Position numbers: made by a program | DNA from: Candidatus Bathyarchaeota archaeon | GTDB lineage: Archaea > Thermoproteota > Bathyarchaeia > TCS64 | Assembly: GCA_963771885.1 (NCBI GenBank) | Contig: CAVYVF010000022.1 | Span: 64,001 to 128,000, forward strand | Direction: 5' to 3' | Length of the DNA: 64,000 nt | In this document: in pieces, positions 27,001-30,000 of the stretch | How the letters are laid out: each line of letters starts with the position of its first letter | Numbering within the stretch: position 1 is the first letter of the stretch

Positions 27001-30000
27001 CTTGGCCTAGTCAACGGGCTCGGAACCATCGGCTATTCGATAATCACTCCATTCTATGGGTCGCTCATCGACATCACAGGAGGCTACTTCGCCTCGAACA
27101 TGGTGATGATCTGCAGTGCACTCATCATGACCGCCACTATGGTCCTCTTCACGAAGGAGACATACGGTGGGCTGAAGAAGACCAGTTAGACGAACGCTCA
27201 TCCCTTGGGTTAGAGTCCCATAATTTGGGGTTCTGCACAATCTTCTTACCCCGGAACCAGAGAGTCATCGTTTTCCCATTAGGCTGGATCAGGAAGCCGT
27301 CTAAGAATCCTATACCATCGGATGGTGTGCGAATCCCGAACCAGTGCAAAAGCAGGCACCCAACCCAGACATCGTGGGTGATGTATATGTCCAACCCCGC
27401 GGGCTCCGCTGACTCGAGGCTGGCTTGGGTGTGATCCGCGAAGAATTGGGCGAAACTCAACGAGTCGCAGAAGGCAGGAGGCGTTAAACCCGTGCACCAG
27501 TTGTTAGCGAAGTTGATCGACGCTTCGACCTCATCTCGACTCCGCTTAAGGTTCTCAGAGAGATACTTTGAGGCTTTCTCAAGGTCTCGTATCATCAGGT
27601 CATCGATCTTTCTTGAATATGCGGGCTCGTTGCCGCGGGAAGTCAATCCCTCCCCGATGCACTGGGCCGTCTCCTCCGCCCTCTTGATCTTCGTGGAGTG
27701 GAGACGAATCCTTCTATCAGGGGGAATACCTCTCCCGAACTCCACCGCGGCCTCACGCCCCACAATCGTGCATTGTAGCTGGTTACTTGTATCAGGGTTG
27801 TAGGGGGGACGTTCCGTGTGACGGATGTGAAGCACAGCTGGCTTGTCTGGTTCAAGTTCGTTGAGGCTTTCGAGGAGACTCCGTGCAGGCTTACCCCAAG
27901 CCACGGATTTGAGGAAGCTTGCCACGAGGAAGGATTCGCTTCTTTCTTTAAATACTCATCGCGACGACGATGCCGACGCCCTTTTAACCCCTGCCTCAGA
28001 CGGTGGATTTAGAAAATGAACACCACAGAACCTCATACTAATGCTGAGGAAACCATCAGGCGCCTCCCGAAGCTGGAGCAGCACATACACATCATCGGCT
28101 CGACCAAACCTGAGACACTCCTTGCGATCATCGAGGACGGGGGCGTCGAGATGCCCTTCAAGACCCTCGAAGAGGTTAAGACATTCTTCCAGTACAGCGA
28201 CTTCAACCACTTCATCAGCGTCTACAGCACAGTTAACGATTGTATAACCGACCCTAAGCACTACGAGAGGATAACATATGAGATGCTCGAATCCGAGGTT
28301 GCCTGCAACGTCAAGCACGTCGAGGCGATCTTTTCCGCCAACGACCACGTACGCAGGGGACTCGACTACGGTGAGATGCTCGACGCGATAAACACTGGGA
28401 TCAGGCGAGCGAAGAGAAAGTGGGGTATCACATGCACAATCAGGGTCGACCTTGTACGCAACTATGGCCCCAAGGTTGCTCTCAAGGAGCTCGACTGGAT
28501 AAAGGAGAAGAATGACAACATCGTCGCCGTCGACATCGGGGGAAGCGAGGACGGCTTCCCACCAGAGCCCTATGAGAAGGTTTACAAGAAGGCGAAGGAC
28601 CTCGGGCTCCACCTCGTCGCCCACGCAGGTGAAGCAGCGGGGCCTGAGAGTGTCTGGGGTGCAATAAAGACACTCGGGGTAGAACGCATCGGTCACGGGG
28701 TCACGGCGGCAACAGACCCAGCCCTCCTCAGCGAGATAAGGGCGAGGGGCATCGCGATCGAGACCTGCCCTGTCAGCAACCTCCGAACCGGGGCTGTGAA
28801 GACAATAAAGGACCACCCCATACGCAAGTTCATCAACAGCTGCATCCCCGTCAGCGTCAACAGCGACGATCCTCCCATGTTCAATACCGACATATACAAT
28901 GAATACCTCCAACTCCACCGCGAGCAGGGCTTCACAATAGACGAACTCATGAGAATAAGCCTCGACTCCATATCTACAAGCTTCCTACCAGACAAGAGAA
29001 AAGAGGAGCTCCACGGGGAGTTCCTGAGCGAATATCGTGAACTGAAGAGAAGCTAGAGCTCGAAGTGGAACAGTGAGAAGTCAACGTTGGGCGAGTAGTT
29101 CTGTGTCAGGTCCTCACCTGTCGAGTGTATCGCCTTGACCTGTTCAGCTATGGTGTCGAACACGTTGTCGATGAATATCGGCGGGGGGACGAAGTGGTTA
29201 TAGAGTAAACCAGCAGCGACTATTCCGCCCCCGATCACGTCCGATACCATAAACGGCTCGGGAAACATCACCAACGCAATGCCGAACGAAATGAGGCTGT
29301 TACCCGCGCCGCCGTAACCGTGGTCGTATAACCCGTTTACTTCCTGCAGAGCGCTGTTGAAGCCGCTCAACAGGCTCGCGGACTCGGTGAAAGATCCGCC
29401 GAGCTCCTTAGCAGCCGTTACTACATGATCCGTCTTTGGAGTAATCAAATGAATCACCTAGAGCGCCTTGAACTGGTCGAACCACTTGTCGTACTCCTTC
29501 ATCATCTCCTTGGAGACGCTTGGCTTGCGGTTCGTGATTGCGTGTTTGAAGTCACCCATCGATAAGGGTCTCGGCTTCTTCGTTGTGTTATCGGCCTCGC
29601 CCGACTCGAATAGCTCTCTGATGACCTCCTGGCGGACGACTTGGCAGATGTCCTTGATGTCACTGCCACTGTAGCCGTCCGTCAACTGCGTCAGTGTGTG
29701 GAAGTCCACGTCGCGCGTCATCTCAAGCTGCGCGCTGTTGAGCTCGAACATCTGTAGGCGCGTCGCGTAGTCGGGGAGTGGTATCATGACCCTCTTCTGG
29801 AACCTACGTATGAAGGCCCAATCCAGGTCCCACGGCTTGTTCGTCGCCGCGACGACGTATAGATGGTAGTTCTTGCCTTTGTCCTGGAGGCCGTCCATCT
29901 CCTTGAGGAACTGGTTCCTCATGCGGACCTCGCCTCCGACCTCATTCGTGTGTACGCCGAGGATGCTGTCCACCTCGTCTATGAATATTATTACGGGTTT

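Follow-up and report, generated by a model that had tools for sequence, protein, structure and literature searches.

A small hairpin-protein gene behind cdvC in a CdvA-less Bathyarchaeia cdv cluster, and a second small membrane-protein gene divergent from cdvB

We investigated the cdv gene cluster in the window, i.e., the whole stretch of 64,000 nucleotides analyzed here, from a Bathyarchaeia genome (G000). The cluster lies on the minus strand and comprises an ESCRT-III gene without a winged helix (cdvB1, 31488..32132, 214 aa), a winged-helix-type ESCRT-III gene (cdvB2, 30618..31362), cdvC encoding Vps4 (29458..30621, 387 aa, with MIT (residues 10–72), AAA, and Vps4_C domains; PF04212, PF00004, and PF09336), and ORF131 (29053..29448, 131 aa, TTG start). 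On the plus strand, 266 bases from cdvB1 and divergent from it, lies the gene S70 (32399..32611), whose 70-aa product has two hydrophobic helices. Both cdvB paralogs in the window align with Bathyarchaeia CdvB. What the survey's finding had taken for a cdvB fragment belongs to this second, full-length cdvB, which an extra base at 31102 splits in two; the gene is intact (247 aa) in the relative G182, which is 97% identical over 6.3 kb, and the split is thus probably an assembly error. Family and genus labels (f1, f11, f39, g1, g3, g4, and so on) are those of the search tool, f1 being the family of the window genome, and family counts refer to 53 family genomes that were at least 80% complete.

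ORF131 follows the cdvC stop codon after 9 bases, and a Shine-Dalgarno-like AGGTGAT (29453..29459, minus strand) overlaps that stop codon, which suggests that translation of cdvC and ORF131 may be coupled. The gene had 92 close homologs (48–99% identity, mostly 130–132 aa), indicating that it is real, as the survey had held; none of the 92 bore an informative name. The order cdvC–ORF131, previously noted in a few relatives, was found more widely: across the 21 family genomes that have cdvC, ORF131 came directly after it in 21 of 23 loci. Among the 53 family genomes, cdvC occurred in 21, cdvB in 20, and intact ORF131 in 20, all of them in genera g1, g3, and g4, whereas the other 32 had no match to any of the three, save one weak ORF131 match in a 418-aa frame. 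Family genomes without ORF131, formerly counted as exceptions, were therefore no exceptions, since all 32 also lacked cdvB and cdvC matches, and co-occurrence within the family is cleaner than had been reported; this joint absence can be one block deletion. The f1 members of ORF131 formed one clade (support 91/80), which indicates a single recruitment event behind cdvC. Because the link arose once, the 21 loci count as one event.

We read ORF131 as a non-essential membrane-wedge accessory that was recruited once into the cdv operon, and assign this reading a probability of roughly 40%. Nearly tied with it is the possibility that ORF131 is a passenger: a small membrane protein whose function has nothing to do with division and whose gene came to lie behind cdvC a single time and was then retained through ordinary synteny, like the PHP, radical-SAM, and adenosine deaminase genes that flank the cluster. 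Unrelated neighbors are likewise kept in many of the same loci, and unlinked ORF131 paralogs were present in four family genomes, both as expected of a passenger. So is rapid evolution: in 5/5 pairs compared, ORF131 was the fastest-evolving gene of the cluster (30–49% identity, versus 79–94% for CdvB1, 62–81% for CdvC, 41–57% for CdvB2, and 46–83% for S70). Conversely, a passenger does not readily account for the 9-base gap with its coupling signal, nor for the retention of ORF131 behind cdvC while the gene beyond it changes among family loci (deaminase, phosphorylase-like, or PHP).

ORF131 belongs to a widespread, unnamed helix-hairpin-helix family of the phylum. A profile built from 87 close homologs retrieved 102 representatives among 1.84 billion proteins and matched 76 of 251 genomes of the class, and a broader profile matched 134 of 401 phylum genomes. 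Homologs were found in 51 of 63 genomes of f34, where clusters were named Nitrosopumilus and Nitrosarchaeum; the Nitrosopumilus homolog was unlinked to cdv genes. The survey had seen the operon link in one family only, and this held: none of 53 genomes examined outside the family (33 Bathyarchaeia, with 1.5 kb on each side of the best-scoring matches, and 20 others across families, with about 5 kb) had ORF131 adjoining cdv genes, the nearest being a cdvB 4.4 kb away, and ORF131 lay downstream of cdvC in none of 17 informative outside cdvC loci. Instead, its outside neighbors, as judged from translations, varied freely between families (guaA, pyrF, PadR, hisZ/hisG-like, and PIN-ATPase-like), which again suits a passenger. 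The near-complete nesting of the family in CdvB-positive genomes speaks against one: 128 of the 134 genomes with a family match also had CdvB, and among 80 genomes without CdvB a full-length match was found in one (G189, 89% complete) and weak, hairpin-only matches in five. However, related genomes are not independent, and this nesting is a lead only; 193 of 321 CdvB-bearing genomes had no match to the family.

Regarding the protein itself, the membrane hairpin proposed by the survey was supported by hydropathy and by low-confidence models. ORF131 can be divided into an amphipathic helix (about residues 7–42), a hydrophobic hairpin with a P-E-P turn (about 49–86), a second amphipathic helix (93–110), and a genus-specific tail (111–131). 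The hairpin core (residues 50–86; 29191..29301, minus strand), with the consensus LIxxGxxLxxFPEPxxSDxxGxxxIAAG, was the only part conserved across the phylum. Averaged hydropathy peaked at about 52–62 and 67–85, each stretch being short for a spanning helix, whereas a high hydrophobic moment was seen at about 5–42 and 93–110. Across 144 aligned family members, judged by sequence, the hydrophobic hairpin was kept as a membrane-inserting segment; only P63 and P65 were invariant, and G56, G73, and G80 nearly so. (The repeat protein P0158, taken as a chance match, was excluded from the alignments, as were fragments and frameshifted rows; 6 of the 92 close homologs were left out.) The NxLYDHGxGG and VDFSSxxF motifs reported earlier as conserved did hold, but within a genus-level subfamily: the YDHG motif and the C-terminal tail, which reads VDFSLFHFEL in the window, were lacking in the cdvC-linked members of g3 and g4, and each tail column was a gap in 86–96% of 107 more distant alignment rows.

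AlphaFold2 models from 75 and 144 sequences both gave four helices but no confident fold (pLDDT 53.8 and 53.6; pTM 0.23 and 0.27). From these features we infer that the hairpin dips into one leaflet, within an oligomer. In agreement with the earlier statement that the protein is of no known family, ORF131 had no Pfam match at E values up to 1, and no shared family emerged in Pfam (75 members), PHROGs (75), or NCBIfam (8 proteins). It was also not related to the ESCRT-III core (CdvB/Snf7; profile–profile probability 0.3%, E 0.2), and its profile was unrelated to that of S70. A Foldseek search of the PDB with a low-confidence model gave no match, a wide VIA-align search with the first model (75 sequences) gave generic helices (best Z 5.4), and the ESM Atlas returned hypothetical archaeal clusters only for both ORF131 and S70. 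No fusion of either to a longer protein was found, which is weak evidence.

The helix-hairpin-helix layout would also suit a small oligomeric pore-former or membrane-permeabilizing protein, a soluble helical bundle that inserts its hairpin and is kept by ESCRT genes for vesicle release or repair. Weak profile matches to two ClyA-type chains were obtained at positions 75–122 (E 0.027 and 0.028). These matches were not significant, covered 48 positions, and sat among designed coiled coils; ORF131 is about one third of the length of a ClyA-type chain, its low-confidence model gave no fold match, and the homologs are single copy with a tree that follows taxonomy and no mobile context seen. We consider a pore-former improbable.

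The survey's reading was that ORF131 is a membrane partner of the Cdv machinery that replaces CdvA, and the absence of CdvA was confirmed. A profile of 30 Bathyarchaeia CdvA found none in G000 (best E 0.078), and the sole PRC-barrel protein of this genome, a 113-aa stand-alone frame, was rejected as a candidate. Outside the family, 189 of 198 genomes of the class had CdvA, compared with 6 weak matches (E 0.002–0.008) in 52 family genomes, and all 21 Cdv-bearing family genomes lacked a detectable CdvA, although a very diverged CdvA is possible. Where a full operon was seen in other families, its order was cdvB-cdvA-cdvB-cdvC, indicating that in f1 the cdvA gene was lost from its place between the cdvB pair. 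Pfam searches of ORF131 showed neither of the CdvA domains, PF05239 (PRC barrel) and PF18822 (CdvA coiled coil). Additionally, a strong FtsZ match (E under 1e-30) was found in 27 of the 32 family genomes without cdv genes versus 4 of the 21 with cdvC, and none in G000; 17 of the 21 Cdv-bearing family genomes thus had CdvB and CdvC with neither CdvA nor a canonical FtsZ match.

A stronger form of this reading makes ORF131 an essential anchor that replaces CdvA, with its C-terminal tail docked on the MIT domain of Vps4. It would draw on the mapping of cdvA loss and ORF131 gain to the same clade, on the lack of both CdvA and an FtsZ match in G000, on a PPP motif before helix 4 that is common to cdvC-linked members, and on CdvB2. 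The winged helix of Sulfolobus CdvB binds CdvA, and in g1 that of CdvB2 is decayed, being cut back to the last helix and strand. The idea that this decay follows CdvA loss holds in g1 and partly in g3, but not in f39, where the winged helix is intact although no CdvA was detected; the decay in g1 is therefore weak corroboration. As for docking, the PPP motif together with the amphipathic helix 93–110 loosely matched the consensus of the MIT-interacting motifs of Vps4 adaptors (MIM1/MIM2), and the tail is missing from the cdvC-linked proteins of g3 and g4. When ORF131 was modeled in complex with the MIT domain of CdvC and with the intact CdvB2 of G182, both runs scored 0.00, with no controls folded and an uncertain partner fold, and they speak neither for nor against docking. 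CdvA binds CdvB and not Vps4; a protein docked on the MIT domain would therefore not do what CdvA does. The docking claim was unsupported.

Two further cases argue against an essential anchor. In the relative G110 (completeness 92%, contamination 5%), the cdvB-cdvB-cdvC locus is present twice, each time with only a 3′ remnant of ORF131 behind cdvC, and no intact ORF131, CdvA, or FtsZ was found in the genome; the decay of ORF131 there also fits a passenger. Its cdvC copies are 99% identical and its cdvB genes 79–84%, and the double locus is possibly an assembly artifact, though the two remnants differ from each other. In f39, the operon was cdvB-cdvB-cdvC in 9 of 9 loci seen, and none of 5 genomes had a CdvA match above the cut-off, whereas ORF131 homologs occurred in 11 of 23 genomes; in three loci that were seen, they were unlinked to cdv and had his genes as neighbors. 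The CdvB1 and CdvC trees leave the relation of f1 to f39 open, and a shared single cdvA loss was unsupported by them. We infer that f39 corresponds to Methanomethylicia from a statement on that class in 10.1101/2022.04.06.487207, by which Methanomethylicia have CdvB and CdvC only and CdvA-less CdvBC sets were already known in other lineages. Conversely, f11 had the ORF131 family in 31 of 43 genomes and CdvA in all 43. According to PMC12818579, Sulfolobales CdvB paralogs bind membranes by their own N-terminal amphipathic helices; CdvB thus can do so unaided, and a separate anchor is not required. Of the survey's reading, the hairpin anatomy, the cdvC coupling, the co-occurrence with cdvB and cdvC in the family, and the cdvA loss stood, whereas CdvA replacement did not fit the CdvA-bearing genomes, G110, or f39, and we consider it very improbable.

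Under the accessory reading, ORF131 would belong to an ancient, unnamed protein family of the phylum, with small members that sit at the membrane surface. The short hydrophobic hairpin of ORF131 would wedge into one leaflet instead of crossing the membrane, with the two flanking amphipathic helices resting on the membrane or packing with neighboring copies. Such an oligomer may mark or bend membrane patches where ESCRT-III polymers act. In the ancestor of g1, g3, and g4, ORF131 would have moved behind cdvC, in a lineage whose operon lost cdvA, and would since have been a co-expressed, non-essential accessory of the CdvB-CdvB-CdvC machine; a curvature role and a functional tie to ESCRT-III are both putative. 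ORF131 closes the Cdv operon in one Bathyarchaeia group and is a dispensable member of a wider family otherwise untied to that operon. Being dispensable and mostly unlinked, ORF131 alone is a modest lead.

S70, at the opposite end of the cluster, also had no known family (Pfam and NCBIfam among the searches), but was encoded with an ESCRT-III gene throughout its family, whereas ORF131 was so in one clade and in none of the 53 genomes outside it. S70 was divergent from cdvB1 in 13 of 13 family loci that reached that flank and were syntenic with the window. Among the 401 genomes of the phylum, its profile matched 76, each of which had CdvB, namely f11 (28/28), f28 (9/10, the miss also lacking CdvB), f27 (4/4), f13 (6/9), and f39 (23/23), among others. 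In 72 of the 76, S70 lay less than 3 kb from a cdvB (48 seen in loci, 24 from coordinates); the other four were one examined unlinked copy, two contig ends, and one spurious match. Three arrangements were seen: divergent (f1, f11, f27, f28, f30, and f18); upstream of cdvB in the same orientation, separated from it by a TrmB-like gene (f39 and f61); and directly downstream of a cdvB at 16–51 bases (five f13 genomes and one f75 genome). Two f13 genomes had extra unlinked copies, and one f75 copy had no cdvB within 1.5 kb. Most CdvB-bearing families had no match to S70, including Nitrosopumilaceae (0/63), where a wider profile gave no credible match in two genomes. It was present in both CdvA-less lineages and is retained in G110. 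Such neighborhood evidence, with three arrangements and CdvB always present in 76 genomes, is of the kind that revealed real components before. We therefore regard S70 as a stronger candidate than ORF131 for a new division component, its partnership with CdvB being putative and resting on gene neighborhood.

More speculatively, the g1/g3/g4 clade and the unrelated f39 might divide by a CdvA-less ESCRT-III/Vps4 system (most of g1 also being FtsZ-less) that is tethered or positioned by small membrane proteins, with S70 as a conserved integral-membrane CdvB partner across three classes and ORF131 as a clade-specific curvature aid; we hold this combined picture to be doubtful as a whole. The locus bears on how ESCRT-III finds mid-cell without CdvA, as 17 of 21 genomes here lack CdvA and a canonical FtsZ match. 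It matters for this CdvA-less, mostly FtsZ-less ESCRT system and for S70, and its two small membrane proteins, neither of which belongs to a known family, could be tested at little cost.

Among known systems, reticulon/REEP, caveolin, and oleosin share with ORF131 a short hydrophobic hairpin, a proline turn, and flanking amphipathic helices; this would be a likeness of anatomy only, with no sequence or fold match found. The locus resembles the Bathyarchaeia operon cdvB-cdvA-cdvB-cdvC, as given in PMC10936438, in its cdvB, cdvB, cdvC order, its MIT-AAA Vps4, and its winged-helix second CdvB. It differs from that operon in that cdvA is missing from the operon and was not found in the genome, and in the extra hairpin gene behind cdvC; genus g1 further differs from the usual Cdv system in its decayed winged helix and in that most of its genomes also lack FtsZ. 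CdvA itself binds membranes better with CdvB, according to 10.1101/2024.10.03.616404. In PMC11188069 (Makarova et al.), TACK archaea have a minimal CdvABC system plus one extra thaumarchaeal gene, arCOG08707 (Nmar_1089), which, like ORF131, is a lineage-specific accessory gene proposed from its place beside cdvC. By the description there, arCOG08707 is encoded upstream of cdvC and its product is a coiled-coil protein roughly 160 aa long, whereas ORF131 is encoded downstream of cdvC and carries a hydrophobic hairpin. In supplementary file 9 of PMC10936438 (covered for places 1–30 and 96–125 out of 251 under 'Bathyarchaeota' and for each of the 25 arCOG08707 rows), AC479_04640, a divergent gene of 222 bases that resembles S70 in size and place, is listed without an arCOG and unflagged. 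The string 'bathyarch' does not occur in PMC8970359 or 10.1101/2023.03.28.534520, and our literature search, with subscription papers and preprint supplements outside its scope, returned no paper on the ORF131 or S70 genes.

In bacteria, LiaI and PspB/C are membrane recruiters of ESCRT-III-like proteins, as stated in PMC7619361. The pairs LiaI–LiaH and PspB/PspC–PspA differ from ORF131 and S70 in that no sequence similarity was found and in that recruitment is proven there and putative here; for ORF131, in addition, the ESCRT link is confined to one clade. As a working analogy, these pairs may nevertheless be likened to ORF131, and more so to S70, in that a small hydrophobic protein is encoded with an ESCRT-III-family gene. 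If the tethering picture were true, it would provide the Cdv system with its first integral-membrane subunit, which would parallel LiaI or PspB/C in archaea.

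Within the 53 genomes of the CdvA-less family to which the present genome belongs (f1), CdvBC and FtsZ divide the members near-exclusively: 21 carry CdvBC, 17 of them without canonical FtsZ, whereas the other 32 gave no match to any Cdv protein, and 27 of these have FtsZ. Many genomes of two genera of this family (g2 and g3) contain frames of about 890 aa that match tubulin/FtsZ weakly, and in the three g3 genomes such a frame is the only tubulin/FtsZ match. The present genome, in which neither FtsZ nor CdvA was matched, encodes a stand-alone PRC-barrel protein (113-aa frame, L062:1435-1773, on contig C7). 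It also contains three additional cdvB paralogues, at C23:859322-859945 and C1:9414-10813, comprising one single gene and one cdvB1/cdvB2-like pair; the contig of the pair has a GC content of 48%, and both cdvA and cdvC are absent beside either site.

We found that S70 (window 32399-32611, plus strand), a membrane protein of 70 aa that has two helices and belongs to no known family, is a frequent neighbor of cdvB, which lies within 3 kb in 72 of the 76 genomes with an S70 match. This neighborhood takes three arrangements and is present in both CdvA-less lineages. In the window, one extra base at 31102 breaks cdvB2 in two; the copy in a 97%-identical relative is unbroken, and the extra base is probably an assembly error. 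A small, basic 83-aa frame (36316-36567, minus strand) gave no match in a Pfam search.

The stop of ORF131, the 131-aa membrane-hairpin gene 3' of cdvC, is overlapped tail to tail by 4 bases of an adenosine deaminase gene (28016-29056, plus strand), downstream of which lie MFS, phosphorylase-like, formyltransferase-like, and CTP synthase-like genes. A CTP synthase-like gene at 22549-24178 (plus strand) was read as two frames of 408 and 110 aa, possibly reflecting another single-base error. In an f1 relative with two cdvB-cdvB-cdvC loci (L139:4616-5920 and L140:3658-5299), whose cdvC copies are 99% and cdvB genes 79-84% identical, ORF131 is decayed, as is the adenosine deaminase gene in L140. 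ORF131 homologs from families f40 and f51 (loci L100, L101, and L103) have a longer N-terminal helical part, lack the C-terminal helix, and end just past the hairpin.

In the second CdvA-less family, f39, the winged helix of CdvB2 is intact, although CdvA was not found there. A TrmB-like gene of 420-450 aa, divergent from cdvB1, is kept in all nine full f39 loci (L219-L225, L227, and L228) and is likewise divergent from cdvB1 in family f61 (L226); it is a candidate regulator.
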